Virus record (IMG/VR): IMGVR_UViG_3300050821_002122
Span: 96,001 to 160,000 of that record
From: a virus
DNA: 64,000 nucleotides
Reading direction: 5' to 3' (one strand)
This document shows positions 2,344 through 53,123 of this stretch, piece by piece. The translations under genes and the position numbers were made by a program. The first letter of the stretch is position 1. Each line of letters opens with the position of its first letter. Below the pieces are notes generated by a model, which was not told where the DNA came from, did no database searches, and saw only the letters and a program-made list of their open reading frames with translations.

Positions 2344-3780
2344 TTACTCTCCGTCAGGTTCTTCGTTGCATGCTACGTAAAGTTCCTCACCCTTGCCGCT
2401 AGCGATCTGCTTGAAGCAGTATGCTCGCAACGACATCGATTTGAAGCCAGCTTTCTTACTGATCTTAATCATTTGGTCACGATCACCCAACACCCAGGCC
2501 TTGTAGTCGTACCAGCTTAGGGGCTTGGCAGTACCGAGCCCGTCAAGCTTGAGCGTCAGTTTCTCTCGGCCTTTGCCAGCCAGTTGACCAGTCAAGCGTA
2601 GGTAGTGTATGGTATCGAAGAACGGATCGAAACCACGGGCTACACCGCTACCGTCTTGCTCCCATATACGTACCCAGACTTTACGACCTGGTGTCCACAG
2701 CTTGTTCTTGATGGCCTTGACCTGAATGTAGCGATAGATATCCTTACCTTCGAATTCGACGGACTTCTCAACCTCGCTGCGGTTATCATTGAAGTTCTTT
2801 GGCCACAAAGGCATACCGGAAGCACGCGCAGTATTACGAGTGCGAACGTCAGAATTGAAACGCAGAGCCTTCCCGCCTGGTTCTTGTTCTTTCGGACCGT
2901 ACATAGCCATCGGGATATCGCGCAACTGATTTACACCCAGCAATGCTACCATCTTTTCAGCCAAACGACCCTTGACTCGTGGCAAATGCTTGGCAAACAT
3001 CCGAGCGGCTAAGCCAAGGCTGTTGTTTGCATCCTCTTCATCATTGGCGGCTGGATTCATGGCTGGGTACGAGTCAACAAAGAAGATACCCTGCAGATTG
3101 CCGTCCGGTGCCGGAAGCCAGTAGCCTTTGCCGTATTTCTTGGTCATCGACGAGTCAGCCATATCCCCGTATTTGGCCTTATTCTCCTTTGTCTCATCGA
3201 AGCGCAACCACCATTTCTTGGCAATAAATTTCTTGTCTGGTAACTTACGTAGAACCTCCGACATGTAGTCGAAGAATTTATCGCCAACAGATTCAGAGTG
3301 GTAGCGAACTATTGGGCGTATTACCCACTTACCCGTATCTTCATCTCGTTTGCCGAATAGTTGATTTTTCTCCAACTTAACTCCAGCGCCACGAATGATC
3401 GATTCTACGTAACGCTTGGAGTTTCGGGTACTCCCCTCATAATCCCAAAATTCCAACAAGGGAATCTTCGCCTTAATAGCGTTGGCCATGACGGTCAGCG
3501 TATTAGTTGTCTTCGCTGTCTGCTCCCAACCCGAGGAAGTGTACATGCCAGCGCGAACACCACCACCGAGTTGGATATCAAGGCACAGCATGCCGGTAGA
3601 CATCGGGTCACCAATGTCCAAGCTGGAGACCTCTACGCCTTGACGGCGAGCGATTACATCCAGTTGATCCCCGTAGATGGAGGCATAATCGAACTTCTCG
3701 GTTGATCCTTTTTTCTTCTTGGATTTCGGCTCTTCCGCTTCGACATCAACCTCTACGTCTTTCTGTTTCTTTTTTGCCAT
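2344..3780 (-). CDS. recA: RecA/UvsX-like recombinase
   Basis: STGMLCLDIQLGGG, Walker A GWEQTAKT, Walker B IFFVDS, NQLR..PGGKALRFNSDVR. Confidence 0.9.
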   Translation of the reverse strand: MAKKKQKDVEVDVEAEEPKSKKKKGSTEKFDYASIYGDQLDVIARRQGVEVSSLDIGDPMSTGMLCLDIQLGGGVRAGMYTSSGWEQTAKTTNTLTVMANAIKAKIPLLEFWDYEGSTRNSKRYVESIIRGAGVKLEKNQLFGKRDEDTGKWVIRPIVRYHSESVGDKFFDYMSEVLRKLPDKKFIAKKWWLRFDETKENKAKYGDMADSSMTKKYGKGYWLPAPDGNLQGIFFVDSYPAMNPAANDEEDANNSLGLAARMFAKHLPRVKGRLAEKMVALLGVNQLRDIPMAMYGPKEQEPGGKALRFNSDVRTRNTARASGMPLWPKNFNDNRSEVEKSVEFEGKDIYRYIQVKAIKNKLWTPGRKVWVRIWEQDGSGVARGFDPFFDTIHYLRLTGQLAGKGREKLTLKLDGLGTAKPLSWYDYKAWVLGDRDQMIKISKKAGFKSMSLRAYCFKQIASGKGEELYVACNEEPDGE

Positions 3781-26311: not shown

Positions 26312-27310
26312 TTAGAAGTACTTCGATTTAATTTTGGCGAGAATCCATTCTGGACAGCTACCTGGGTCCCACAAACTAACGCCTGCTTCTTTTGCTGCCT
26401 TGCTCGGTTCTGCTTCGTCAGCGAATGGAATGTAGGGGCTACCCTTTATCTTCCACAAGCGCAGGACCTTGACATCGAACATTTGCTTCAGCGACTCGTT
26501 CAGTTTCGTGGTACAAGCTATACCTGCGCAATCGCCGTCCATGAGCAACACAACTATCTTGGCACCACTAAGCTCAAGTATTTTTGTCTTCGTTGCGGTC
26601 CAACTTTGAGTACCCAAGATACACATCGCAGGTATTCCGTAGGCCAACAAACGCAGCGCATCGCGGGGACCTTCTACCAAGACTATAGTACGCGACTTCA
26701 TTTTGCGCATCATCTGGACGGAATAGTCATACGGGAACAGCCCATGTGTCTTGGACCATACGCCCTTGGAATTGATGTAAGACGAATACTCAGCATGCTT
26801 TTTCAAGCGTGCTTTTATGTAACCCTTGAGATTACCATTGACATAAACTGGTAGCCAAATCTTCTTGACCTGCCACCCGTAGTCTGGATGGTTGACCTTA
26901 CAAAACTTGGCGCCCAACGCAATCAACAGATTCGTAGGTATCTCTCTCCACCGTTTATTTGCCGGCAGCTTGCTATAAACAATCTCTTCGTCTTGGATTT
27001 CGTCTTCGTTTGCTAATGACATGACGGCCGTATTGGCAAACTCATCCTGCGGCTTCGATGGACCGAAGGGTTTCAGACCAAGCAAGGGAGATACCTTATT
27101 CCAAGTTGCAGTTTCGCCACACCCGTAACATTTGAAATAAGGACTGACCAAATGAGGTCCGTGGTAGATACGACCACTTGGGGTCTTCTCTGCGTGGAAG
27201 GGACAAAGCACGAATGTCGAATCGGGTATCTTCTTTGTCTCGCCGCTGTACTGCGCAAGCTGATCGAGTACGAACTGCCGCTTGCTGTCTGTACCAACAT
27301 AATCGTTCAT
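26312..27310 (-). CDS. dnaG: DNA primase (CHC2 zinc finger + TOPRIM)
   Basis: CPFHAEKTPS..CYGC, LVEGPRDA, MDGDCAG. Confidence 0.9.
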   Translation of the reverse strand: MNDYVGTDSKRQFVLDQLAQYSGETKKIPDSTFVLCPFHAEKTPSGRIYHGPHLVSPYFKCYGCGETATWNKVSPLLGLKPFGPSKPQDEFANTAVMSLANEDEIQDEEIVYSKLPANKRWREIPTNLLIALGAKFCKVNHPDYGWQVKKIWLPVYVNGNLKGYIKARLKKHAEYSSYINSKGVWSKTHGLFPYDYSVQMMRKMKSRTIVLVEGPRDALRLLAYGIPAMCILGTQSWTATKTKILELSGAKIVVLLMDGDCAGIACTTKLNESLKQMFDVKVLRLWKIKGSPYIPFADEAEPSKAAKEAGVSLWDPGSCPEWILAKIKSKYF

Positions 27311-27993: not shown

Positions 27994-28351
27994 TGGTTGA
28001 CCTGTTATAGTTTAGCCGCATACCACTAAGTTCAGAGCCGTAAGTCAACGCCCAGGCGACTGGATTTGTCAGATCGCAGTCGCCCTCATAAAGCATGGTG
28101 AGCATTTCCCTAACAACGTCTTGAACTTGGATTTCGCTGGCAGCCCAGAATATGAAATTTAGGACTTCATGTTCAAAAATAACGAACCGCGGGCTAGAGG
28201 CACCCGCAGCAAGTGCAACGGTAATACGAGTATTAGCCCACGGGCTAACCAACTCGTCAACGAACAGCATGTAAATCTGTTGGTTCAAATGGTCCGATAT
28301 ATAAATCCTGTCTACCTCTACCTGTTCTATGCTGTAGCGGCTTCCTTGCAT
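27980..28351 (-). CDS. Hypothetical protein
   Basis: 123 aa, tiles. Confidence 0.55.
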   Translation of the reverse strand: MQGSRYSIEQVEVDRIYISDHLNQQIYMLFVDELVSPWANTRITVALAAGASSPRFVIFEHEVLNFIFWAASEIQVQDVVREMLTMLYEGDCDLTNPVAWALTYGSELSGMRLNYNRSTNELH

Positions 28352-31300
28352 TTAGACTCCTTGCCCTTATGAATGTAGATTGGCCGGATAGCTTCTACAA
28401 TCTGCTTGTCCAGGTCGCTCACATTCAGTAGAGGATAATGTTTTTGTAGCCAATGACGGCATTTTTTATTAGCCCAAGGTTTGAAGATTTCTTGTAGCAC
28501 ATCCTGTTCGGTTCTACCATCAGCCAACAGGCCAAGCTCTGCCGCTTCTTTTATAGAAGCCTGTATGCCAGAAACAATACTAGGTAAAGACCAATCCCAC
28601 TTATGAGTAATGTCATCACGCGCCCCAAACTCCAACTCGATCTCAGGCTCTACCGGAAACTTGAAGTTGAATTCACGTTCGTAGGCCTCAGTTACACCGT
28701 AAGTTGCACACCACTGGAGAATATGTGCATATGGAATAACCATAGCATACGGCACCGAATAGTAGTTCGCATCGTGAACGGCTCGATTGTACGGCACACG
28801 TAACGACCATGCGTCATATTCAATACCCAGCAGTTCGCAAATCTGAGGCAAACGTTTGTAATAGTGTTCCATAATGATGCGACCAGCTTTGACGCCAATC
28901 TCGGATGCCCAACCTTGGATTGGGGCATTGGAACCTCTACGCACTTGCTGCGCAATGATCTTCTTATCGCCCGTCATTGCAGCGAATAGGTGACGAATAC
29001 GACCGATTGGCGAGAATACGATGTACAGTTCTTCCGCCATCTTTTTCGTCTTGTTGGTCCAAGCACCAGCCTTCTTGAACTCAGCAAAGATTTTGTCGAT
29101 AAGACCTTGAGCGAACGGTGTGCGATCCTCCGCCAGCAAGTCCTTTAACTTCTTCTCGGCCTCAGCAGCCACCTTAGCAGGTGTCTCTTTGTTGCCAATC
29201 GTTGACATCAGTTCCAGCTTATCACCAGTCTTCGTGTCTTCGCCCAAGGTGGCCGCAGACTTACCGTAAATCAGACCGAAGATAATAGCCTTAATCGCAT
29301 CACGAAGGGGATGGTCTTTATCCACGATCTTGTTTAGCAACCGCTTCACGTTCAGGATATGGATATCACCGCGCAACTTTATATCAGCTAAAGCCTTTAC
29401 ACTTGGATGGCGGTAATCACCATCATCTTCGGCCATTGAATACATACCATCATTTGCGAATTCTGCATGATACTTCTTCGCAGCTTTGACGTAGGCCTTA
29501 TGTGCCAATTCTTGTGAGCCAAAGACACCTAAGTGCTTTACCTTTTTACGTGGACTCGGTTTTATCTGTGCTACCCAACTGCCTGCTTTCGGCCCAGGAT
29601 AAACACCTTTGTAACCAGAGCTAGTTTTTGTGGAATCAGTTCTGCGGTTTCTTGAATTCTCCAACCTAGTTGCTGGTCGTAGATTATTAATGCGATTGTT
29701 AAACGGATTGTTGTCTTTGTGGTCTACTTCAACTGGAAGGTACCCGTAAACCAGCAAAAAGGCTATTCTATGTGCTCTATACAACTCACCATTTAGGGAT
29801 AGGTACCACGAATCTTTACGTTTGGAGCCTGCCACACTTCCTATAGGTGTATTGCGGCTGCGAGCTTGTTTCCAGGTGAATTTTCCACTATCTGGGTCGT
29901 AAATAAACCACTCATCCATGAGTTTTTTTAGGTCTTTATCTTCTTGCGGAATACCAGGGATAGCTATATATGCCTGCCGCAATTTCTGACCAATGCGGAA
30001 AATACCAGCCAGCACATCGTCAAGTCCAACGTAAGACCACACACGTACCTCATGCGCGGAATAATCGTAACGCATGAGCAGATAGCCCTTAGGCGTAATG
30101 AACATGTGCTTGATGATCTTGGCCAATTTACCACGAGATGGAATCGTTTGCAAGCTTGGGTTCTTCGATGCCAGTCGCCCTGTAGCGACATCGAAATACG
30201 AATAGTCGGGTCGCAGATGATGGTCTTCAATACTGTCCGCATTAGAGCGGAGTTTTTTCAGCCAACCCTTAGCATAGGTGCCCAGCAGCTTAGAGAGTTT
30301 CGAGTAATCACCGTAGGCTGCTACGACCTGATTCTTATCCTTGTTGGCGGCAACAAAGGCTTTGTCGACCGACGATTCACCCTGCTTGGTCGTGTTGACC
30401 GGCTCGTAACCCATGACATCGAAGAATAGAGTACGCAAGTGATTACCCTTGCTAAGACTCAATGCCCAATTCAATGCCTTGGCTCTCGCTTTGCCGAACA
30501 GTCCTTTGGTTTTCAAACCGCTCTTAGCAAGTATGATATCGTTTGCCTTCACCGCCTCCGGGAACACACGGAATGCATTGCTGAGATTTTTCATCTCAGT
30601 ACGAAGCGGACTTTCTGTGGAGGTGAGATACTTCAGGTACTTCGCATCTATCAAGGACCCATCTTCGCGCAGGTGACTCAGTTGATGGACGGTATCGGAC
30701 ATTTGGTACTGCATATGACGTACGAAATACTCACCATAAGGCTTACCATCGATCAGCTGGTGATCTGCCATCTTGATCTGTTCTTGGCGCATTGCGAGAA
30801 TCGATACTACGTCCATGGCGGCATAGCGCAAGAAGTGCTTGTCGTTGGGCTTGATGTTACCGCAAGTGTTGCGATCTTCCTTGCTGAACTTCGTAGTCTC
30901 GCGGTAGTAGAAGTCGTTGCGATAGCTGCATAGCACAGCAGCCAAGTTACCTGGCTTTGATCCGAAGTTCGACAGCTCGACGATATTTTCATCGAGGTCA
31001 TGCTCACCCGCGATGATATCCCATGCGCGGTGTAGAATGATTGGTATCTTGAAATAGCGACGTATGACTCGCAGATCGTAGGGACCGTTAAAGAACACAA
31101 ACTCTTTAAGACCCTTCTTTTCTGCCTCACTGAAAAATGCCTTCAGTTCACGGCGTATGTATGCAAGTTCCTCTTTGGTCCACGGTGTCATTGGGTGGCT
31201 CAATGGAAGCACGTACCCGACGTCGGGATTCAATTCGGTGGCGAACTGCATCGTGTAGATTTTATTGAAGTGGACTGAGAGGTCTTTAGTCTCCGTATCC

Positions 31301-31998
31301 AATGCAATAGTCTTCGACTTGCGCAGGCGTACCATCAGCTTGTCGAATAATTCTATGGTGCCGATGTACTTAGGTTTAGGTTCCACGTGACCAATGTCAT
31401 GCGGATGTTTACCCAGCAATAGATTGTTCAAGTGTCTGCACCAGAAGCCCAGCAGATTGGCATACTTACCGTCTTTCTCCAACAATCGGCTGAAGTCCAA
31501 CGTCGATACGACTTTCAACTTCAGATCATGCGACTTGAGGTCATGGACCCATCCGCGCTTGTAGGTATGCTTCTCTACCTGCGGCCACATAGCGTTCATG
31601 GCTTCGTCACCGGAGACCAGTACATGCGTCGGCTGTAGTTTCTCAATAAGCTTGTGCATGTGGGCAGCGAACTCAAGTTCTGCTTGCTTGCGGGCTTTGC
31701 CCTTCAGGTGAAGGTGCCGTTTCTGATTGAAGTTCGCTACTGCGTAAGAAGCCTCGGCTGCACCTTCTTTGTAGGAGCGCACAATACCCCTGGTATACTT
31801 GATCGCGTTCTTGAATGCTGTGTTGACATTGCGGTCTTGAAGCAACCCTCGTGCTTTGAGATCGCGGCCGTCAACCGTTTGTAGGCATACCAGTACGCGC
31901 TTCTTACTTTGCTTCCAGTCAGAGCAACGAGGCATATGCAGATTGTATGCGTCCTCGTCCTCATATGGAAACTTGAATGTGGTCTCAAGCATATGCAC
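28327..31998 (-). CDS. polA: Family A DNA polymerase: UDG-like N-domain, 3'-5' exonuclease, polymerase with in-frame HNH-AP2 insert
   Basis: Exo ALDTET, FNGPYD, YAAMD; TGRLAS..NLQ, motif A DYSAHEVR, motif B RDAIKAIIFGLIYG, NAPIQG, motif C VHDA. Confidence 0.93.
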   Translation of the reverse strand: MHMLETTFKFPYEDEDAYNLHMPRCSDWKQSKKRVLVCLQTVDGRDLKARGLLQDRNVNTAFKNAIKYTRGIVRSYKEGAAEASYAVANFNQKRHLHLKGKARKQAELEFAAHMHKLIEKLQPTHVLVSGDEAMNAMWPQVEKHTYKRGWVHDLKSHDLKLKVVSTLDFSRLLEKDGKYANLLGFWCRHLNNLLLGKHPHDIGHVEPKPKYIGTIELFDKLMVRLRKSKTIALDTETKDLSVHFNKIYTMQFATELNPDVGYVLPLSHPMTPWTKEELAYIRRELKAFFSEAEKKGLKEFVFFNGPYDLRVIRRYFKIPIILHRAWDIIAGEHDLDENIVELSNFGSKPGNLAAVLCSYRNDFYYRETTKFSKEDRNTCGNIKPNDKHFLRYAAMDVVSILAMRQEQIKMADHQLIDGKPYGEYFVRHMQYQMSDTVHQLSHLREDGSLIDAKYLKYLTSTESPLRTEMKNLSNAFRVFPEAVKANDIILAKSGLKTKGLFGKARAKALNWALSLSKGNHLRTLFFDVMGYEPVNTTKQGESSVDKAFVAANKDKNQVVAAYGDYSKLSKLLGTYAKGWLKKLRSNADSIEDHHLRPDYSYFDVATGRLASKNPSLQTIPSRGKLAKIIKHMFITPKGYLLMRYDYSAHEVRVWSYVGLDDVLAGIFRIGQKLRQAYIAIPGIPQEDKDLKKLMDEWFIYDPDSGKFTWKQARSRNTPIGSVAGSKRKDSWYLSLNGELYRAHRIAFLLVYGYLPVEVDHKDNNPFNNRINNLRPATRLENSRNRRTDSTKTSSGYKGVYPGPKAGSWVAQIKPSPRKKVKHLGVFGSQELAHKAYVKAAKKYHAEFANDGMYSMAEDDGDYRHPSVKALADIKLRGDIHILNVKRLLNKIVDKDHPLRDAIKAIIFGLIYGKSAATLGEDTKTGDKLELMSTIGNKETPAKVAAEAEKKLKDLLAEDRTPFAQGLIDKIFAEFKKAGAWTNKTKKMAEELYIVFSPIGRIRHLFAAMTGDKKIIAQQVRRGSNAPIQGWASEIGVKAGRIIMEHYYKRLPQICELLGIEYDAWSLRVPYNRAVHDANYYSVPYAMVIPYAHILQWCATYGVTEAYEREFNFKFPVEPEIELEFGARDDITHKWDWSLPSIVSGIQASIKEAAELGLLADGRTEQDVLQEIFKPWANKKCRHWLQKHYPLLNVSDLDKQIVEAIRPIYIHKGKESKCKEAATA
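29410..29961 (-). mobile_element. HNH-AP2 endonuclease domain inserted in frame in polA
   Basis: YDPDSGKFTW, YRAHRIAF, VDHKDNNPFNNRINNLR, GYKGV, HLGVF, YHAEFA; boundaries approximate. Confidence 0.88.
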
Positions 31999-44700: not shown

Positions 44701-44974
44701 CAAGATCATATGCCAGTTTCAAGGATGGGCTAGGCTTGCCTACGTTACCTGCTACATGATCTGTACAGGTGTAGATTACAAATCCTTGAGAGTTATCTAC
44801 AGTAACCTCACACCAGTCATCACCAGTAAGGTCTGCGGGTATAGTGTGCCCTTTGATATGACCATCATGACTATGAATTACTAGGCTCATGCCAACCATA
44901 CTATAGAATAGGCCTACTACTGAGGCCTCCGCATTGGTGAAGTACGTATATGTTGAGGCGTCGGTGTAGTTCAT
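41750..44974 (-). other. Run of eight tiled hypothetical ORFs (41750-41998, 42008-42277, 42264-42764, 42757-43317, 43314-43502, 43499-43816, 43813-44166, 44150-44974)
   Basis: Head-to-tail ORFs with start/stop overlaps; no recognisable family. Confidence 0.55.
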
Positions 44975-45195
44975 GTTGGTACCTTAAAGACCAAGGTGTT
45001 TAACTGGCTGTTCACGTAGGCCAACAATTCAGATATTTGGGAGACCTCACAAGGTGTTTGAGGACCGCTAAACATACTTACGAACTTGTTATCAGCATTC
45101 AGTGTTACGGTTATGCTGACACCGGATTGGTCGTCGTAGAAGGCATGTACCATCTTTTGGTAGCCAAGATTCTTGGCGATGATTTTGATTGTCAT
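44971..45195 (-). CDS. Tandem paralog 3
   Basis: MTIKIIA..FYDD..LVF. Confidence 0.6.
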   Translation of the reverse strand: MTIKIIAKNLGYQKMVHAFYDDQSGVSITVTLNADNKFVSMFSGPQTPCEVSQISELLAYVNSQLNTLVFKVPT

Positions 45196-45196
45196 T

Positions 45197-45418
45197 TTAG
45201 TCCTCGAACACTAGGTTTTGAATTTTGTTATTGATTTCTGCCAGCAGTGTTGCCACCACATCCCCAGGTTGTGAACAAGAGATTTGCCGAATGGTGTAAT
45301 GCGCGTCATAAAATACGCGTATGTAGCACGCAGGATTATCCTCATAGGAGGCTGTTACCATCCGCGTGGAACCGTTGGAGCCTATTACAAGGCTTTGGGC
45401 AATGAGCTTGATATTCAT
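45197..45418 (-). CDS. Tandem paralog 2
   Basis: MNIKLIA..SYEDNP..LVF. Confidence 0.6.
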   Translation of the reverse strand: MNIKLIAQSLVIGSNGSTRMVTASYEDNPACYIRVFYDAHYTIRQISCSQPGDVVATLLAEINNKIQNLVFED

Positions 45419-45657
45419 TCCAAGCACTCCTCAAAGACGATGTTGGGCAGCTCGCGGTGAATCTCATTCATCAAAGCAATGATGGTAGTCATCGATGCGA
45501 ACGGAGCATTGGGCATCGAGTACATACCACCCACTTCATTCGCATCATTGAACAGAACAGCAATCCTGTATTCTGGATTGTCCTCAAAGTAGGCGTAGGC
45601 CAACTTCGTGCCTAAGTTAGAGGGCTTGATATGCCGTGCAATAATTCGTATGGTCAT
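45415..45657 (-). CDS. Tandem paralog 1
   Basis: MTIRIIA..YFEDNP..IVF. Confidence 0.6.
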   Translation of the reverse strand: MTIRIIARHIKPSNLGTKLAYAYFEDNPEYRIAVLFNDANEVGGMYSMPNAPFASMTTIIALMNEIHRELPNIVFEECLE

Positions 45658-46271
45658 TTTCCATACCTCTTCTTTGCTCCTAGCTTACCAGCAATGGCGG
45701 CTTCCTCTTTGGTGTAGCGATGAGCCGTTCCGTCGGCGTGTGCCTTCTTACCGCCCTGGGATGCTATCTCACGTTGACGCTCTGGACTGATAGCCGCGAA
45801 GCCTCGTGCGTTCAGGTCTTTCACGTAGACATCGCTGACCTGACCCTCATAGGGAGGTGCAGTATGCGAGAACTTGAAGTTCCAATTCTTGATGTACCAC
45901 TGTGCCGCCGAATGAGTGTCTAACGCTACATGCGTGAAACCCAGCCTACGGCAATACTGAATTGCTTTCGCAACCAATGCCTTACCAGTACCTTTGTTGC
46001 GATGTTCGGCGTCCACATGGACAGCATAAAGATGCGGCATCTGCAATAAGGGCAAATTCAAACGAGGCCAGTATGCTGGGTCTGGCTCGTATTCAATTAT
46101 AACCGATCCGATTACCACACCTTCTTCCTCTGCGATATACGCCCAGGGAATTGGGTTAGGTATTGGTCCATCTGGCAGAGCTGGAATCTGTGGTAAGAAG
46201 CCGGTGAAGTAATGCTTGGTGGCGTAGGCCAAATGGTCTTTCCTGTTGCGATCAAAGTTCACGATTTTCAT
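45654..46271 (-). CDS. GNAT acetyltransferase fused to KGG (YciG/GsiB-like) stress motif
   Basis: VHVDAEHRNKGTGKALV; C-terminal RGFAAISPERQREIASQGGKKAHADGTAHRYTKEEAAIAGKLG. Confidence 0.8.
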   Translation of the reverse strand: MKIVNFDRNRKDHLAYATKHYFTGFLPQIPALPDGPIPNPIPWAYIAEEEGVVIGSVIIEYEPDPAYWPRLNLPLLQMPHLYAVHVDAEHRNKGTGKALVAKAIQYCRRLGFTHVALDTHSAAQWYIKNWNFKFSHTAPPYEGQVSDVYVKDLNARGFAAISPERQREIASQGGKKAHADGTAHRYTKEEAAIAGKLGAKKRYGK

Positions 46272-46906
46272 TTTGGTGTCCTCAGATATTCGTGGAGTAG
46301 TGCGCCAGTGCGCTCATCTATGTGCGTCCTGCCGCTCTTTACGAAGCCTGCTTTGGTAAAGACTTTGATGGAGGCCAAGTTTGCGTCATCGATGTAAGCA
46401 CGCCCGGTACGCAAAGCAAAGTGACGTATAACGAAAGCAGTTGCGATGCCTTGACCGCGGAATTCTTTGAGGACAAACAAGGGACCGATGCGATTGTGCC
46501 CACTGGAATCAGTGTAAGGCCAACACACTCCGACTGGAGTTTTACCCTCATGGTAGATGACGACTAGATTGGCATCTGTTTGATGTTCAACTGCACCGTT
46601 CAAGAATGCCTCACGCATAGCGTAGTCAATAATACGATTTACCTGAAGGTCGCGAGGGTCTATGATGAAAGACAATAGGTCCCTACTGTGTACAGACCAA
46701 AGTACTTCCTTGGTCTCGTCGATGAGCATCATATGCCCACGATTCACGAGGTACAACTTGCCTTCCACTGGCGGTCGGGTCAACATCGAAATGTGACCTT
46801 TGATATTAACCGACTTTTCTAGCTGATAGGTTTCGTCACCTACCACTACGGTAGAACCTACGGGTATCATATAGGCGGGTATCATTACCTTCATGTCAAT
46901 ATGCAT
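46268..46906 (-). CDS. GNAT acetyltransferase with extra N-terminal domain
   Basis: LFVLKEFRGQGIAT, NLASIKVFTKAGF. Confidence 0.8.
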   Translation of the reverse strand: MHIDMKVMIPAYMIPVGSTVVVGDETYQLEKSVNIKGHISMLTRPPVEGKLYLVNRGHMMLIDETKEVLWSVHSRDLLSFIIDPRDLQVNRIIDYAMREAFLNGAVEHQTDANLVVIYHEGKTPVGVCWPYTDSSGHNRIGPLFVLKEFRGQGIATAFVIRHFALRTGRAYIDDANLASIKVFTKAGFVKSGRTHIDERTGALLHEYLRTPK

Positions 46907-46934
46907 TTCGTTCTCCTGTTGTTCACTTACTGCA

Positions 46935-46942
46935 TATTTACT
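46935..46942 (-). promoter_or_regulatory. Candidate phage promoter AGTAAATA
   Basis: ~29 nt upstream of first leftward ATG at the divergent switch. Confidence 0.6.
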
Positions 46943-46986
46943 AGACCAGGATTCTGATTAACAGAAGAATAAATACAGAAGAATGC

Positions 46987-47053
46987 TGTCAGACAATAGA
47001 CAAAAGAATGCTTAGAAGAATACTATTATGTTTTGAAAGAGTGTTGTCAGACA
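46987..47053. repeat. Two copies of palindrome TGTC-A-GACA, 58 bp apart
   Basis: TGTCAGACAAT at 46987 and 47045 in AT-rich divergent intergenic region. Confidence 0.7.
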
Positions 47054-47148
47054 ATGGCATCACAGTAAATATGTACTGATCCGATCAAGACTAAGGTGCG
47101 CTACATGTTAGTCCCAACTACTGATGAGCTTAATACATAAGGTAACCT

Positions 47149-48357
47149 ATGAAATACGAGTACACCATGCTGGACGGAATAAAGATGGGTCTAAATATAC
47201 AAGACAATGGCATAGCTTTGGACAAGGAGGAATTGGAGGTCTTGAGAAGGATATTCAAGAAAATGAAAGCAGTGTATTACGAACAGAACAAGGAGTATGT
47301 GATATCAAAGCCAGGCAATACGTCTAGCATACGTATAGGACTACGGCAGCACCATTCAAACGGAGACCATTGGTACCTAAATATAGATGGTAATCCAATG
47401 AATCACTTCAAAGAACAGAACGTATATGGGTACGCAGACGCAGGTCGTCAGATACGTAATACGTTTAAAGCATGCATATTGTGGTTATCAAAGCGCAGTA
47501 AAGTGGTGATAAATGAAAGCCTATATGGAAAGATAGAGAAAGGTGAGATAAACATCCACAGTTTGGAATTCGCTTCTTATACCAAGAAATTGGACTGTGA
47601 TATAGATCAATTGATTAATTCGTGGCAGGCAATGTATCGATTGGCAAACTGGACAGTAGACGGTAAGACCGAAAGCTTGGATAGGATGCTTGGTATATCT
47701 ACGCGCATTGATTCAGAGGAGTATGCCAGCTCGTTTGCCTTAGCCACTATAGAGAAATACCAAAGCAGGGTGTATCGCGTGGTGGGTCTACGCCTATACA
47801 GAAAGGACGTAGAGATAGAAGAGACCAAGACCGAAGTATCTGCTGAGATATTGGCCGACGTACGCCAACGCCTGCGGGTTGACATAGAATTCGGGTCACG
47901 CTGGCTGCACCGTAAGAAGATAAAGACGGTAAAGGAACTGGAAACATTCGTTGGCATAAATTACGATGGGGATTGGGCCAAGTTCGTTAGAACCGAGTTG
48001 AATGACCTGATTGAAAAAGCATGCTTGCGCTACATGTGGACGTTTCCGAATATATTCACTTTGTCGGAGAAAGCCAAAATACCACCTCAGTGGTTCGGGG
48101 GTGTGGTAGATGCCGAAGTCAGGCAATGGGCGCTTCAGCGCGGGATAAATCCAGATATCAGTTATAAGGCTCATGTGTCAATGGTGTGGGCACGCTTGAG
48201 TGAGCAACCTGGCTACGATAAATTGAAAGCATTGGAGTCGCCGAAAGCCTACGCTAAATCTGCTCTGAGGGCTTACAAGCAAATGGACAAACTCAAGAAT
48301 AATCAAGCACTTGCTGTAGCAGGGTTGACCTTTGATAGAAAAGAGGTGGCCCTATGA
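47149..48357 (+). CDS. Rolling-circle replication initiator-like protein (inovirus gpII/Phage CRI, Rep_trans superfamily)
   Basis: LNIDGNPMNHFKEQNVYG, RLYRKDVE (YxKxxE), RLRVDIEF.SRWL. Confidence 0.6.
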   Translation: MKYEYTMLDGIKMGLNIQDNGIALDKEELEVLRRIFKKMKAVYYEQNKEYVISKPGNTSSIRIGLRQHHSNGDHWYLNIDGNPMNHFKEQNVYGYADAGRQIRNTFKACILWLSKRSKVVINESLYGKIEKGEINIHSLEFASYTKKLDCDIDQLINSWQAMYRLANWTVDGKTESLDRMLGISTRIDSEEYASSFALATIEKYQSRVYRVVGLRLYRKDVEIEETKTEVSAEILADVRQRLRVDIEFGSRWLHRKKIKTVKELETFVGINYDGDWAKFVRTELNDLIEKACLRYMWTFPNIFTLSEKAKIPPQWFGGVVDAEVRQWALQRGINPDISYKAHVSMVWARLSEQPGYDKLKALESPKAYAKSALRAYKQMDKLKNNQALAVAGLTFDRKEVAL

Positions 48358-49582
48358 AAACCTCAGTAGTAGGCTTGGGCTACTCGCGAACACAGGGTTA
48401 CTTTGAGGCCACCGAAGGGTTGAAGGGAATGCGTCTCAAAATACCAGTGGACGCAAAACGAGGCACATTAGCGTTGGTGTATTTTACACGCATCTTCAAA
48501 GGGCCGCCAGTAACAACACATATACTAAGTGGAAATGTCCAATGGCGTTGTGAGTTCAAGGGTACAGAATTCTGGTTCGACGTTTATCATATGTGGTTAA
48601 AGGCCCGTAACGCTGCTGATGTAGAGCAAGCACTTCATGAACTTGAAATCTTACCCAAGATTCAAAAAGTATTCAAACGAGAGATGGTTGAGTGGCAAAC
48701 ACTTTGCGATTACATGCCGCGTAGTAGGCCTGACATTGCTATAGTTCAGGCCGCATTATTCAACCAGAATCCAGTTGAGGTACTGCGTGGCGACGCGAAA
48801 GTAAATAGAGCAAAGATAGAAAAATTCTTGGACTACATAAGTCCTGTTATAGACAACCTTCTCTAGGAGATAGACATGTGTGAATTAAGTCCAGAAGTAT
48901 TGAAGCACAACGCCATCAGCCAGTATATTGCCCTATCGTGGCCGACCGAAGGTATCATGTCATACCCAGATGAATTGGGTAGCTTAGGTGGTGTTACGAC
49001 TCGCACGGTATCACCGTTGGGTGTGGAACCCCATCATATTACCGTCGATGGTTACTACGAGCCAGAGTCCATAGATGTTGATGACGCCGTTGCCACAATG
49101 GTAAGATGCTCGCCGTGGCCGATGAAGGTAGTGTATCTGGATGTCATCAAGACCGGTACCCACATTTGGTTTGAACTTCTAGTGGTGGTAAAATGACATA
49201 CCATAAATTAATTGATGGGCAACTGGTAGCAGCGGAAGATGGTGATTGGGTACCTCGTCTAACCTACGACGCACTGACGAAACAATTCATCGAGTACCTG
49301 AGCGCTCAGTTGGAAAAACTCAAGTTAGATCATCTGGGCAACCTAGCCATAAAAGAAGCTGACAGGTTGTGGGCAATAGAGAACGAAACACCCGTGCAAC
49401 GGGGAATCAGAGAAGGTGCCGAAGCCCAAGCTCGCGCACAAGAAGAGGTAATTGCTAAAATGGAGTTGCCTGAGAATATACGTGTCTTGCTTGAGAAGCC
49501 AGTAAAAGATAGCGCAGAATTCGATAAGCTGGTGCAAGAAACTCTTGCAATGCGTCGTAAATTTACCGTGGTGATGAGGTAA
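48354..49582 (+). other. Three hypothetical ORFs (48354-48866, 48876-49196, 49193-49582)
   Basis: Tiled, with RBSs. Confidence 0.55.
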
Positions 49583-50132: not shown

Positions 50133-50729
50133 ATGAAAACCAGACCAACTAATGACCCCACTGAGGTGGAGGTCGAAATCATTGCTGGTGGGTGGGTCAG
50201 CTACAAGCGTGGCCTGCGGGCGATCATCGAGGAGACCAAACGACGCCACCATATTACATGCAGAGGTTATGGTACACCAATACGCCATCTGATTGGTCTA
50301 CGTCACGAGACTATCACCCGCAGTGTACCTGGTACTCCACTGGTTGCAACTCAGTTGTTGGTAATCGCGTTAGCAGGTTCGCGAATCTCAATCCGCGAAA
50401 TGTACGAGCTGAACTTGGAAGACCCAGAGATCAGAGAGGTCACCAACGATCTCAGCCTACAGATACAAGGCAAAGCAGTACATGTGATCCGCCACATGGA
50501 AGTAGAGGCTGTATTCGATCTGGCTACACCAGCCGACAACTTTATCGAAGTATGTGCCTATGCCTCCAAGCAGCGTCGGACACAAGCGATGGGAGACCTT
50601 GGTATAACTCATCCTGTTTTGGGTCACGCTCGCGGCAAACCTCAGGTACCAGCGTCGTGGATTATCAAGGCACATCTTTATACCGGAATACCAATCGCTC
50701 AACTTACGGAGATGGGAACATGCAAATAG
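50133..50729 (+). CDS. Double HTH-like protein, paralog of next gene
   Basis: LGITHPVLGHARG..PASWIIKAHLYTG. Confidence 0.6.
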   Translation: MKTRPTNDPTEVEVEIIAGGWVSYKRGLRAIIEETKRRHHITCRGYGTPIRHLIGLRHETITRSVPGTPLVATQLLVIALAGSRISIREMYELNLEDPEIREVTNDLSLQIQGKAVHVIRHMEVEAVFDLATPADNFIEVCAYASKQRRTQAMGDLGITHPVLGHARGKPQVPASWIIKAHLYTGIPIAQLTEMGTCK

Positions 50730-51307
50730 AGAACATCGATGGCAGGCTGATTAAAGTTGTACTAGATGACAAAACCATGGTGGTTCAACGTGGTGTGTTG
50801 GCAATAATTGAGGTAGTGAAGCATCAAAGAAAAATCAAACGCAGTGGTTACTGCAAAGCTGTAAAACCTTTAGTCGGCATGACATCGGAGGTAGTGAGTC
50901 GGTGCCGGACCCAGAACAAGAATATGGCTGCATCCCAAATCCTGAAGGTACACCGCTTGAGTGGTCTACCGATTGCCGACATCTACGCGCTGGACCTACA
51001 AGAGTGCAACCCAATAGCACTACAAGAAGATGTTGTCGAACGCGTACCTGATGCAGTATGCGGTTACTGGCTAACCGTAAATGATGGTCCCGCTAACTAT
51101 CACCGTGACCATGTTGACGCCTTCTTAGGCGCGCTGACCACAGTATGTCAAGAACCGAAGCACATAATAATGGGCGAATTGGACCTCTCGATTTACCGAG
51201 TGAGTCAACAGCGTCGGTTGTCCAACATACCCGCACCGTGGATTTTGAAAGCCCACCTGTACACAGGCCTGAAACTAAGCGAGTTATCGAAATTGGAGGC
51301 ATTATGA
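50720..51307 (+). CDS. Double HTH-like protein, paralog of previous gene
   Basis: Start MQIEN at 50720; IPAPWILKAHLYTG. Confidence 0.6.
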   Translation: MQIENIDGRLIKVVLDDKTMVVQRGVLAIIEVVKHQRKIKRSGYCKAVKPLVGMTSEVVSRCRTQNKNMAASQILKVHRLSGLPIADIYALDLQECNPIALQEDVVERVPDAVCGYWLTVNDGPANYHRDHVDAFLGALTTVCQEPKHIIMGELDLSIYRVSQQRRLSNIPAPWILKAHLYTGLKLSELSKLEAL

Positions 51308-52115: not shown

Positions 52116-53123
52116 ATGTCTAAGCTTATTGCTTTGGGGGACCTCCACCTCACAGATCAGCACGGTAGCGGTGGTCTCGCTAAGTATGTGGAGAAGCCCG
52201 ACGAATACGTCATGAGCGAGGTTTCAAGGGTTGTGAAATGGGGATTGAAGCATGATGTTCTCGATTACGTTTTTGAGGGCGATATCTGCGAGAACCCGCG
52301 CATGAGTTATGAGGCACAGTTGGCATTCGCTCGATGCCTGCGTCGCTATCCTGACCTTCAGTTCTGGTTGATCCCAGGTAACCACGATAAGGTTGGTCGT
52401 GACTCAGCGGAAGGTCACTCGCTGGAAATCATCAAAGAAATGCGTATCAAGAATTTGAAAATCTGTTTGACCGATGAGGTGGTTCAAATCGGTCGGACGA
52501 AGGTTAAGATGTGCCCGTGGCCTTCTACTGCATTTGACCCGAAGATGTTGAACATCGGCCACGTTGAGGTGCGTGGCTCAAAGACCGACAGTGGTCGTAA
52601 GATGGAAGGTGAGGAATTATCGAAGTCGCAGGCAGTGGTCCTGATGGGACACTTGCACACACCACACAAAGTCCGCAACACTCACTACACCGGCACTCTG
52701 TACCAAACGAATTTCGGTGAACCTCTACCAAAAGGCTTTCACTATGTTGAATGGACCAGTAGGGATGACCACGAGATTACCCATGTGCCTTTCGATCCCA
52801 AGTACAAGTTGCATAACTGTGTCATCGAATCTGAGGATGACATAAAGGCTCTGCCTCGTAGCGAGACTGACCTCATAAAGTTGGTCGTCAAAGATGGGGC
52901 CGACGTAGTGGTCCCACAGTGGTCGAACATTGTTGTAACCAAAGTTTTCAAAACAAAGAATGATCTGGTATCTATTCTCACCGAAGACCTTTTGAACGGA
53001 CATGAGTTGGTCATCCGATCCTCTGACTACTTCAACAAGTGGTTAGGAGCCCAAACGATACCGCAAGCTTTAAAGGTAAGGGCGACGCGTCTTCGCAAAC
53101 AAATATTAGGTGGTGGAAAATGA
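52116..53123 (+). CDS. SbcD/Mre11/gp47-like metallophosphoesterase nuclease
   Basis: GDLH, GDICE, GNHD, GH, GHLH, YTGTLYQTNFGE. Confidence 0.88.
   Translation: MSKLIALGDLHLTDQHGSGGLAKYVEKPDEYVMSEVSRVVKWGLKHDVLDYVFEGDICENPRMSYEAQLAFARCLRRYPDLQFWLIPGNHDKVGRDSAEGHSLEIIKEMRIKNLKICLTDEVVQIGRTKVKMCPWPSTAFDPKMLNIGHVEVRGSKTDSGRKMEGEELSKSQAVVLMGHLHTPHKVRNTHYTGTLYQTNFGEPLPKGFHYVEWTSRDDHEITHVPFDPKYKLHNCVIESEDDIKALPRSETDLIKLVVKDGADVVVPQWSNIVVTKVFKTKNDLVSILTEDLLNGHELVIRSSDYFNKWLGAQTIPQALKVRATRLRKQILGGGK

Follow-up and report, generated by a model that had tools for sequence, protein, structure and literature searches.

A predicted gpII-type rolling-circle initiator at the strand switch of a large RSL1-like soil phage

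A gene of filamentous-phage type lies at the strand switch of a tailed phage genome that encodes a polymerase and a primase of its own, and this raises the question of what a predicted single-strand nickase would do there. The start of DNA replication is largely unknown in jumbo phages; two reviews of these phages (PMC7824862, PMC13282480) leave rolling-circle replication unmentioned, and the second also makes no mention of replication origins or initiation. No paper on gpII-like genes of jumbo phages came to light. The window analyzed here is a stretch of 64,000 nucleotides (positions 96,001 to 160,000 of IMG/VR record IMGVR_UViG_3300050821_002122). A first, sequence-only reading of it had reported a rolling-circle initiator beside a primase and PolA, a setting in which such nickases were not expected; both replication genes are indeed present, in the same window as the initiator (Table 1).

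The source record comprises 189,689 bp (about 190 kb; GC 0.498) at an estimated completeness of about 80%, and relatives of the phage span 221-264 kb, so that its description as a jumbo phage can be kept as probable. Large, uncultured and from soil, the phage is by sequence comparison a relative of Ralstonia phage RSL1 (RSL1-like), with a PolA identity of 49-52%; it also encodes RecA-like and SbcD-like genes.

Family, active site and predicted fold

The gene, which we call rep, starts with an ATG (AAGG 8 nt upstream) and encodes a catalytic region of about residues 1-255 and, from 256 to 402, a C-terminal region that is helical. As first described, the rightward arm opens with it: the long open reading frames to its left (up to 46906) are all on the minus strand and those to its right all on the plus strand. 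The AT-richness noted for its 5' half is likewise real (GC 0.407, versus 0.479 in the second half and 0.498 in the genome).

Table 1. Features of the rep locus and of the replication genes in the window (window coordinates)
Feature	Position	Strand	Remarks
Primase	26312-27310	-	Same window as rep
PolA	28327-31998	-	Same window as rep
Divergent intergenic region, 242 bp; candidate origin and/or operator	46907..47148		AT-rich (GC 0.36); upstream of rep
Leftward phage promoter-like motif CTAGTAAATAT	46934..46944	-	YAGTAAATA-type
Four A(A/G)AAGAAT direct repeats, iteron-like	46963..47021	+	Starts 46963, 46977, 47002, 47014; spacer sequence
Repeat copy 1, TGTCAGACAAT	46987..46997	+	Contains palindrome TGTCnGACA; followed by AG, giving ACAATAG
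Repeat copy 2, TGTCAGACAAT	47045..47055	+	7 nt upstream of the rightward promoter motif
Rightward phage promoter-like motif CAGTAAATAT	47063..47072	+	77 nt upstream of rep start
rep, 402-aa gpII/Phage_CRI-type rolling-circle initiator (predicted nickase), Rep_trans-like fold	47149..48357	+	ORF, Pfam, model
Asp9, candidate metal ligand (Rep_trans motif N')	47173..47175	+	D in 72/72 ungapped homologues; strand 7-13 of model
GNP..NVYG motif GNPMNHFKEQNVYG, Phage_CRI signature	47389..47430	+	Residues 81-94; aligned to M13 gpII SPAKVLQGHNVFG
HSLEFASYT strand	47557..47583	+	Strand 135-145 in model; E140, A142 and Y144 on one face
YRKDVE active-site motif, Rep_trans motif III (YxKxxE), R215-L-Y217-R-K219-D-V-E222	47791..47814	+	YRKDVE residues 217-222 at 47797-47814; Tyr217 predicted nucleophile
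R241-L-R243-V-D245...RWL, RLRVDIEFGSRWL, Rep_trans motif IV (RxE/D)	47869..47907	+	Residues 241-253; strand 243-248 in model
Partner gene, 170 aa, no known family	48354..48866	+	Start overlaps rep stop (ATGA)

Three profiles bear on the assignment to a rolling-circle initiator family, and one of them matched. Against Phage_CRI (PF05144) rep scores 23.5 bits, above the Pfam gathering cut-off of 21.7 bits (E 5.2e-5; residues 52-265 on profile positions 41-230 of 232), and neither the gpII C-terminal X domain (PF05155) nor Rep_trans (PF02486) produced a match in a Pfam scan at E up to 10. We gathered 80 homologues and made the conservation counts and the Pfam check over 75; PF05144 matches 51 of these 75 (best E 2.9e-12). 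The database names that were looked up for homologues were all absent or 'hypothetical protein', and searches of the PDB by sequence, from rep singly or from a profile, returned nothing meaningful. We also considered a rolling-circle endonuclease of the HUH type (Rep_1, Rep_2, phiX174 A, P2 A) and rejected it: the rep sequence contains no H-U-H motif, the Pfam scan returned no HUH family, and in the predicted model Tyr217 ends a beta strand (207-217), unlike the helix-borne tyrosine of HUH endonucleases.

The motifs on which the initial assignment rested (GNP..EQNVYG, YxKxxE and R.(D/E).EF..RWL) are all present, and they are not chance occurrences, because their key residues are invariant or at least 90% conserved across the 75 homologues. 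N82, Y217, K219 and R243 are invariant (75/75), and D9, N78, P83, N91, G94, A142, Y144 and R241 are conserved in at least 90%, with G81, the first residue of the GNP motif, at 87% or above. Around the predicted nucleophile, the family HMM aligns LYdKaeEl with A-Y197-L-K-H-V-E-L of M13 gpII, placing Y217 and K219 opposite Y197 and K199; Tyr-197 is the residue that becomes covalently linked to the nicked DNA in M13 gpII (PMC5405960). The R-x-Y-x-K-x-x-E spacing equals that of the RepD catalytic residues R189/Y191/K193/E196 (PMC4797284), and of the 75 homologues 58 have E and 14 have Q at position 222.

Set against the published definitions of Rep_trans motifs N', III and IV (PMC5714925), the last of which is given as W/LxRxE (PMC5714925), rep has a counterpart of each: D9, Y217-x-K219-x-x-E222 and R243-x-D245. 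For motifs I (RxD) and II (T/SxY/ExG), HSLEFASYT and N78/N82 are candidate counterparts only. D9 of RepSTK1 is a metal ligand (PMC4797284), and from order and strand position, rather than from a residue-level superposition, we infer that Asp9 is its equivalent. Asp245 is a candidate metal ligand (D in 65 homologues and E in 10 at this position; R241 in 70 of 75). A third ligand may be E140; A142 (73/75) and Y144 (74/75) of the same strand are nearly constant, and the third ligand is uncertain because E140 is found in only 41 of the 75. The conserved residues are spaced i, i+2, as on one face of a sheet. Taken by its residues, rep is apparently an active relative of gpII.

The AlphaFold2 model of rep (pLDDT 93.3, pTM 0.91) points to the same superfamily by a second route. 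Its best PDB matches are the Rep_trans initiators RepDE/RepDN and RepSTK1, and by these matches it is assigned the crescent-shaped Rep_trans catalytic domain, a curved sheet of two five-strand modules with TBP-like connectivity. The top Foldseek matches were 4cwe_A, 4cij and 4cwc_A (probability 0.99-1.0, E 2-7e-4, TM-score only 0.32-0.44); VIA gave Z 8.0 for 4cwc_A, over 212 aligned residues, and Z 7.6 for 4cij_A, and matches of the model in BFVD include Inoviridae G2P. A Rep_trans fold, whose absence from structure searches had been named in advance as grounds for abandoning the assignment, is thus predicted here. TATA-binding proteins (TBPs) tied with the Rep_trans structures in VIA (Z 8.4 and 8.1), as is expected because Rep_trans and TBP share a sheet topology (PMC4797284). 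The C-terminal domain modeled alone (pLDDT 61) was too poor for structure search. Membership of a rolling-circle initiator family is supported by the Phage_CRI match, the predicted fold and the tyrosine aligned with gpII Tyr-197.

The spacer upstream of rep

The spacer between the divergent arms combines promoter-like motifs with repeats that are nearly private to it. The promoter motif YAGTAAATA has 29 copies in the genome versus about 3 expected, always oriented with the genes, and a motif of this type also precedes rep in five relatives (L002, L004, L006, L013 and L015). In all 189,689 bp of the genome the 11-mer TGTCAGACAAT has just two copies, which lie 58 bp apart in this spacer, and three of the four genome-wide copies of ARAAGAATRCT lie there as well. 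Upstream of rep the relatives differ, each with paired palindromes or tandem repeats peculiar to it; in L004 these take the form of GCACT..AGTGC hairpins. In the source spacer we found no significant hairpin (it folds no better than shuffled sequence; z -0.07) and no short-range inverted repeats beyond promoter-related ones.

The Ff origin is intergenic and directly upstream of gene II, and its nick site is CTTT/AATAG (PMC5405960). AATAG recurs in repeat copy 1 (within ACAATAG) and in both L002 repeats (CAGTAATAG); as a putative nick core it is a lead only, since chance alone would give such a 5-mer about 0.5 times per strand in AT-rich DNA. We rejected GC skew as origin evidence: the cumulative minimum falls near 135-141 kb of the record, 2-8 kb to the left of the rep locus, and the sign changes near the locus, but skew tracks gene orientation throughout the record, which is itself incomplete, and a skew that follows transcription direction cannot decide the origin question.

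In four of nine relatives the contig stops 55-270 nt short of rep on its upstream side, in two cases within tandem repeats. We compared Logan contigs from three soil runs; those from two of the runs (X1 and X2) bridge the spacer without an alternative junction, and because they do so the spacer is not a physical genome end in the source phage.

Distribution of the locus and its possible roles

On balance we favor, by a modest degree of belief, a replication initiator that nicks an adjacent origin: rep would be a catalytically intact, site-specific gpII (Phage_CRI)/Rep_trans nickase and a stable core gene in one branch of RSL1-like myophages. Judging by the sequence, rep and its translationally coupled partner are transcribed from the phage's own YAGTAAATA-type promoter. 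Rep would bind the locus-specific TGTCAGACAAT pair and, close by, the AGAAGAAT repeats, all in the AT-rich spacer that immediately precedes its gene. By analogy with its family, Rep would then cut one strand of the circularized, supercoiled genome, with Tyr217 as the nucleophile and with Asp9, Asp245 and a third ligand holding the metal, and would stay on the 5' end; the PolA-based replisome may extend the free 3'-OH, yielding rolling-circle (sigma) concatemers for packaging. Three readings had been put forward originally (a domesticated nickase that starts rolling-circle synthesis, a captured satellite or plasmid module, and a selfish nickase), and of these the first, an inference, fits best. 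Against an initiator, the repeats sit between two divergent promoters, and so could equally be operators for autoregulation.

The partner gene is syntenic with rep in L002, L005 and L004, where its products are 24-33% identical, and returned no Pfam, PHROG or word-index homologues. A Rep-partner complex prediction scored 0.47 against 0.02 for the best control, a weak hint of association. A shallow profile did not find the partner in RSL1, BcepSaruman, Motura or the more distant carrier G001, and an unannotated open reading frame in the switch spacer of RSL1, considered as a counterpart, proved unrelated on comparison. For the partner the ESM Atlas pointed, at feature level and from a poor model, to DUF932/DUF3871 (0.94), which is a lead only.

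Conservation in related phages, proposed at the outset as a check, was found: the strand-switch position of rep is kept in L004, L006/L007 and L015, with the same divergent promoter region and partner, among relatives only 35-46% identical. By sequence identity these form with the source a subclade distinct from G001, a 248,884-bp viral contig whose rep homologue (28% identical; profile E 6e-102) lies off the strand switch, about 110 kb from PolA, and has no YAGTAAATA promoter. Two further distant members of the family are on contigs of 59 kb and 353 kb. In a relative about 95% identical, from another soil run, 15 of the 17 listed differences inside rep fall at third codon positions, a pattern from which rep is judged to evolve under purifying selection.

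A search that recovered G001 as a positive control found no rep in RSL1, BcepSaruman or Motura, which have a common replisome with the source phage; because these phages replicate without it, rep is not essential to an RSL1-type replisome. Their lack of the gene is one reason to consider an active nickase put to another use, such as making breaks for recombination-dependent replication, relaxing or resolving DNA, or attacking host or competitor DNA, with the repeats between the divergent promoters serving as its own operator. RecA-like and SbcD-like genes are at hand, the SbcD-like nuclease coming directly after rep and the partner in L004 and L015 and 3.8 kb downstream in the source phage, and reviews stress that rolling-circle initiators are multifunctional (PMC5714925). 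Yet characterized members of the superfamily all act in cis on a site of their own replicon (PMC4797284, PMC5714925), the repeats, unique, adjacent to rep and different in each lineage, resemble a cognate origin, and we saw no host-targeting feature; we regard such a use as unlikely.

Somewhat less likely again is that rep, partner and origin form a selfish or accessory rolling-circle module, a captured plasmid, inovirus or satellite cassette that amplifies or moves itself and does not serve the phage. The patchy distribution would suit it: apart from its absence from the nearest cultured relatives, the gene gave no megablast or tblastn match in 50,697 deposited phage records, for rep or for two relatives (tblastn with all three members), and it occupies a different genomic place in G001. 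So would the low GC of rep (0.443, the 5th percentile among ORFs) and the variable flanks seen in the 95% relative, in which replacement has affected the neighboring GNAT gene and a portion of the spacer. On the other side, GC3 (24th percentile) and codon usage (79th percentile) are not outlying in the genome, within about 5 kb of rep we found neither integrase, transposase, coat or assembly genes nor flanking direct repeats, and the bridging contigs of two runs offer no alternative junction. Because synteny with the partner is conserved at 35-46% identity, the gene stands under the phage's own promoter motif and selection appears to be purifying, rep is judged not to be a recent capture. The idea of a captured satellite or plasmid module is weakened by the synteny, the promoter motif, the unremarkable codon usage and the lack of integrase, transposase or coat genes nearby.

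A catalytically inactive DNA-binding protein of TBP-resembling fold that regulates the divergent promoters is very improbable, for although TBPs give the best VIA scores and the repeats flank promoters, the TBP matches are expected from the shared sheet topology, the sequence family is Phage_CRI, and Tyr217, Lys219, Arg243 and Asp9, with an acidic side chain at 245, show no variation across 75 diverged homologues, the pattern of a working active site.

A broader proposal, which we hold tentatively and with rather less conviction than the reading of rep as an origin-nicking initiator, is this: one branch of RSL1-like jumbo phages, together with other large carriers, may start or switch genome replication by a gpII-type nick at a defined origin, through a cassette of Rep, partner and iteron-like origin in which the partner would be a new accessory factor. 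A cassette type of tiny ssDNA replicons would then drive the replisome of a genome that exceeds 200 kb. The finding of rep itself adds large tailed dsDNA phages to the range of the gpII/Rep_trans superfamily, which includes ssDNA phages, small plasmids and conjugative elements. The locus also adds a predicted family of sequence-specific nickases with lineage-specific putative target repeats, and its candidate initiator and candidate cis site lie side by side within about 1.5 kb, an arrangement amenable to a simple in vitro test.

Comparison with known systems

The nearest sequence family is gpII (G2P) of the Ff phages M13, f1 and fd (PF05144). rep belongs to Phage_CRI above the gathering cut-off, has the NP..NV(Y/F)G motif, aligns its Y-x-K with Tyr-197 and Lys199 of gpII and is of similar length (402 versus 410 amino acids), and both genes lie directly downstream of a non-coding region, the repeat-bearing spacer for rep and the intergenic origin for gene II (PMC5405960). 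Ff has a 6.4-kb ssDNA replicon copied with host Pol III and Rep helicase; rep, by contrast, resides in a tailed dsDNA phage whose genome measures at least 190 kb and supplies its own PolA, primase and RecA-like genes, and where Ff has gene V this phage has another partner gene. A pairwise comparison does not detect M13 gpII at so low an identity, the motifs aligning by profile only, and the C-terminal region of rep has no gpII X-domain match. That domain and the internal gene X start are features of Ff-type gpII and not part of the PF05144 domain; we rejected a gene X analogue in rep, where a conserved Met296 occupies a gpX-like position but lacks a preceding Shine-Dalgarno sequence in all five relatives compared.

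The nearest structures are those of the Rep_trans plasmid initiators of the pT181 family and pSTK1 (RepC/RepD/RepDE and RepSTK1; PF02486; 4cwc, 4cwe, 4cij), which are the best PDB structural matches of the model, with low TM-scores (0.32-0.44). In them, as predicted for rep, the catalytic tyrosine ends a beta strand and is followed by a helix with a glutamate, the R-x-Y-x-K-x-x-E spacing is the same, and an N-terminal aspartate and an R-x-(D/E) strand appear as metal ligands. rep differs in having no sequence-level PF02486 match, in that motifs I and II are not recognizable as such, in a C-terminal region that is a longer helical domain and not the DNA-binding domain of RepD, and in an upstream region with no nick-site hairpin like IR-II of pT181-type origins.

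Protein A of P2 and 186, like other HUH initiators, has an unrelated fold and active site, rep having no H-U-H and bearing its tyrosine on a strand rather than a helix. The P2 genome is 33 kb and encodes no polymerase of its own. Its protein A is nonetheless the conceptual precedent for rep as an initiator, since in P2 and 186 the replication of a tailed dsDNA phage is started by a phage-encoded, cis-acting tyrosine nickase.

Family, fold and active site of Rep

The rep gene encodes a protein of 402 residues in which every motif picked out by the sequence-only reading lies where that reading had placed it (GNPMNHFKEQNVYG at residues 81-94, YRKDVE at 217-222 and RLRVDIEFGSRWL at 241-253); no HUH motif was found in the Rep sequence. 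Rep matches Phage_CRI (PF05144), the catalytic domain at the N terminus of gpII in filamentous phages, with 23.5 bits, above the curated Pfam cut-off of 21.7; residues 52-265 are matched, to almost the full length of the profile. In the Pfam scan Rep matched neither Rep_trans (PF02486) nor the X domain of gpII. An exhaustive HMMER search returned 80 homologues (56 at E <= 1e-10), and 51 of the 75 that were aligned match Phage_CRI independently (best E 2.9e-12).

A likeness to Rep_trans did emerge from predicted structure. With the alignment of 75 homologues, AlphaFold2 gave a confident model of Rep (pLDDT 93.3, pTM 0.91), for which the first-ranking Foldseek matches in the PDB are Rep_trans initiators (RepDN 4cwe, RepSTK1 4cij and RepDE 4cwc; probability 0.99-1.0, E 2-7e-4, with TM only 0.32-0.44). 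A structure search independent of Foldseek placed RepDE (Z 8.0) and RepSTK1 (Z 7.6) level with TATA-binding proteins (Z 8.1-8.4), a tie that is expected because the Rep_trans sheet topology is shared with TBP (PMC4797284). A search of predicted viral structures gave Inoviridae G2P proteins as its named matches.

In the family profile, L-Y-D-K-x-x-E-L aligns with A-Y197-L-K-H-V-E-L of M13 gpII, whose Tyr-197 is the residue linked to nicked DNA (1999 work cited in PMC5405960), and NP..NVYG aligns with gpII SPAKVLQGHNVFG. The spacing of R215-L-Y217-R-K219-D-V-E222 in Rep is exactly that of RepD R189/Y191/K193/E196, residues that mutagenesis found to matter for nicking and religation (PMC4797284). 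Across the 75 homologues Y217, K219, R243 and N82 are invariant, position 9 is D in 72 of 72 ungapped sequences, position 245 is D in 65 and E in 10, and position 222 is E in 58 and Q in 14 (an E/Q alternation as in RepD/RepSTK1). Rep_trans enzymes hold their metal by three carboxylates on separate strands (D9, D116 and E196 in RepSTK1; PMC4797284). In the AlphaFold2 model D9 lies on strand 7-13, E140 on strand 135-145 and D245 on strand 243-248, with Tyr217 ending strand 207-217; by analogy these three are candidate metal ligands, in Rep_trans order around Tyr217, the middle one being uncertain because E140 is present in just 41 of the 75 homologues. From sequence and model we predict, and with high confidence, that Rep functions as a tyrosine nickase within the gpII/Rep_trans superfamily.

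Genomic setting and inheritance of rep

The source record (IMG/VR; 189,689 bp, completeness estimated at about 80%), of which the window takes up bases 96001-160000, holds a single copy of rep. The window's PolA shares 49-52% identity with its counterparts in Burkholderia phages BcepSaruman and BcepSauron and in Ralstonia phage RSL1, and 46% with the one in Achromobacter phage Motura (genomes of 221-264 kb); the stretch is present in two soil metagenome runs, and a third run holds a relative about 95% identical. PolA identities, replisome genes and occurrence in soil mark the source as an uncultured RSL1-like large myophage from soil. The primase/PolA replisome named in the earlier reading is indeed in the window (table below), and its label of jumbo phage is likely, although a record of this length and completeness is not proof. 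In PolA (1223 aa) an HNH_3 + AP2 nuclease is inserted in frame (residues ~740-845) between polymerase motifs, and RSL1-group polymerases align in two pieces around this insert; the 999-aa polymerase of G001, a 248,884-bp viral contig, is without it.

Features of the window and of related loci (a prefix marks coordinates of another locus)
Feature	Position	Strand	Basis or remark
RecA-like gene	2344-3780	-	annotation
Primase	26312-27310	-	annotation
PolA	28327-31998	-	PolA comparison with RSL1 group
YAGTAAATA copy	32026	-	
YAGTAAATA copy	39860	-	
Three tandem small ORFs	44971-45657	-	74, 76, 80 aa
Two adjacent GNAT acetyltransferase genes	45654-46906	-	end of leftward arm
Promoter-proximal GNAT gene	46268-46906	-	
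Spacer	46907-47148		242 bp, GC 0.36
YAGTAAATA copy, outward-facing	46934-46944	-	in spacer
Spacer part swapped in relative	46998-47143		
YAGTAAATA copy, outward-facing	47063-47072	+	in spacer
rep	47149-48357	+	ORF, 402 aa
Partner	48354-48866	+	ORF, 170 aa
Paralogous pair, ~195 aa	50133-50729, 50720-51307	+	BLASTP E 3e-15
SbcD-like phosphoesterase	52116-53123		annotation
YAGTAAATA copy	62910	+	
RSL1 non-coding stretch	RSL1 204434-204969 (L016:14435-14970)		annotated, 536 bp
PrkA kinase-like, DUF444, SpoVR trio	L006:16381-21149		95-kb contig, 5 kb downstream of rep
Gene directly after rep	L015:1896-2243		
Contig end upstream of rep	L013:1-268		in 69-nt repeats
Contig end upstream of rep	L002:1-88		
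Contig end upstream of rep	L005:1-84		
Contig end upstream of rep	L014:1-54		

Long ORFs all lie on the minus strand from the window start to 46906 and all on the plus strand from 47149 onward, so rep is the first gene of the rightward arm, as had been proposed. Its 5' half is AT-rich, again as read earlier (GC 0.407; the 3' half has 0.479 and the genome 0.498), and its overall GC is low (5th percentile for the genome); neither GC3 (24th percentile) nor codon usage (79th) stands out. Third codon positions account for 15 of the 17 differences listed within rep for the ~95% relative, a bias indicating that rep is under purifying selection.

Conservation in related phages, a check named by the earlier reading, was found: relatives 35-46% identical keep the gene in the same place, as the first plus-strand gene after a run of minus-strand genes in L004 (95-kb contig), L006/L007 and L015. 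Directly after rep, often overlapping its stop, comes a gene for 156-196 aa, 24-33% identical to the window's partner, and an SbcD-like phosphoesterase comes as the next larger gene in L004 and L015. ORF296 of RSL1, the homologous SbcD-like gene, is itself first past the corresponding strand switch, where the spacer measures 536 bp; the rep-partner pair therefore fills exactly the switch position in the window's branch. Profile search found no rep in RSL1, BcepSaruman or Motura and did find the G001 copy (E 6e-102); tblastn of deposited phage records with three family members gave no match. G001, whose PolA is 43% identical, is more distantly related, and its rep lies in a co-directional gene run ~110 kb from PolA. 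Within ~5 kb of rep we saw no integrase, transposase or filamentous-phage structural genes. Together, synteny, partner conservation, ordinary codon usage and the lack of such genes nearby point to an old, stably inherited two-gene module of patchy distribution, and speak against the earlier suggestion of a captured satellite or plasmid module if recent capture is meant.

The partner product has no family in Pfam, PHROG or the homologue index. Complex prediction, fed with our own shallow alignments, gave Rep and partner a median score of 0.47 (best of three controls, 0.02), with the three runs sharing at least 87% of contacts and a pLDDT of 85 or more for the partner. When the predictor was calibrated, 58 of 80 solved complexes reached the pass mark, as did 2 of 110 mismatched pairs; scores no higher than 0.60, however, include only 7 of the 80 together with both passing mismatches. 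A physical interaction is weakly supported and possible. Among nearby small genes, the ORFs of 74, 76 and 80 aa look like paralogues (ends M-x-I-K/R-I/L-I-A ... L-V/I-F-E/K), and the ~195-aa pair, which has no Pfam match, has in common a C-terminal motif P-x-W-I-(I/L)-K-A-H-L-Y-T-G, resembled by the C-terminus of the L015 gene directly after rep.

Probable promoter motif and repeats upstream of rep

YAGTAAATA occurs 29 times in the genome (about 3 expected), every time pointing along the local genes and in many cases 20-35 nt ahead of a ribosome-binding site, and on these grounds is very likely a promoter element of this group of phages. It is also found upstream of rep in L002, L004, L006, L013 and L015, and is absent from G001. 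Between the two spacer copies lie four A(A/G)AAGAAT repeats and two copies of the 11-mer TGTCAGACAAT, 58 bp apart, each with a palindrome TGTCnGACA; the 11-mer occurs nowhere else in the 189,689 bp.

Upstream of rep in relatives the elements differ by lineage yet are analogous: two hairpin-capable palindromes 49-69 bp apart (L004, L003), a palindrome plus half-site (L015), 20-69-nt repeats (L013), 28-bp tandem units (L002) and 12-bp units repeated in tandem at least four times (L005; CATCAGTACATA). Of nine contigs from relatives, four independent ones break off 55-270 nt before rep begins, vs ~0.4 expected from contig sizes, and two of the four do so within tandem repeats; L002 ends in its 28-mers, L005 in its 12-mers and L013 in 69-nt repeats. 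This suggests that such arrays break short-read assemblies. Lineage-specific repeats adjoining an initiator gene have the look of a candidate cognate origin and equally that of an autoregulatory operator, which sequence cannot separate. No significant secondary structure was found in the spacer; if an origin, it would be more Ff-like than pT181-like. The Ff origin has binding repeats beside the nick site and requires supercoiling (PMC11765958); its place is the spacer that immediately precedes gene II (PMC5405960), the same layout as the candidate here.

Of the two GNAT genes that close the leftward arm, one encodes a KGG stress-repeat motif at its C terminus; in the ~95% relative the promoter-proximal GNAT gene is swapped for 258 other bases, and part of the spacer for 85. 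The RSL1 stretch, between the DEAD-like helicase ORF295 and ORF296, has several 18-25-nt inverted repeats and no rep, and could be RSL1's own origin region.

Proposed role and relation to known systems

On balance we lean toward a reading in which Rep nicks at the upstream repeats and starts rolling-circle synthesis by the phage PolA replisome. In the mechanism that we infer, Rep would be expressed from its own phage promoter and bind the unique repeats on circularized, supercoiled phage DNA; one strand would be nicked, and covalently held, through Tyr217 with bound metal, and the 3'-OH would pass to the phage polymerase, giving concatemers and hence a role in genome replication. We regard as unlikely an active nickase that serves some purpose other than initiation, such as feeding recombination-dependent replication, with the repeats as its operator. 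Somewhat less credible is a selfish rolling-circle cassette, with patchy distribution on its side and the retained position and partner against it. An inactive regulator could also act at an operator, but with an invariant Tyr217 is highly improbable.

We found no paper describing an initiator of the Phage_CRI or Rep_trans kind in tailed or in jumbo phages, and two jumbo-phage reviews (PMC7824862, PMC13282480) do not mention rolling-circle replication; our own profile search places a gpII-type homologue also in the 249-kb contig G001. The kind of enzyme, a gpII/Rep_trans nickase, is already well known. What is new is the type of replicon, a large tailed dsDNA phage that encodes a replisome itself, together with a divergent subfamily that lacks the gpII X domain, a coupled partner gene and repeat sets specific to each lineage.
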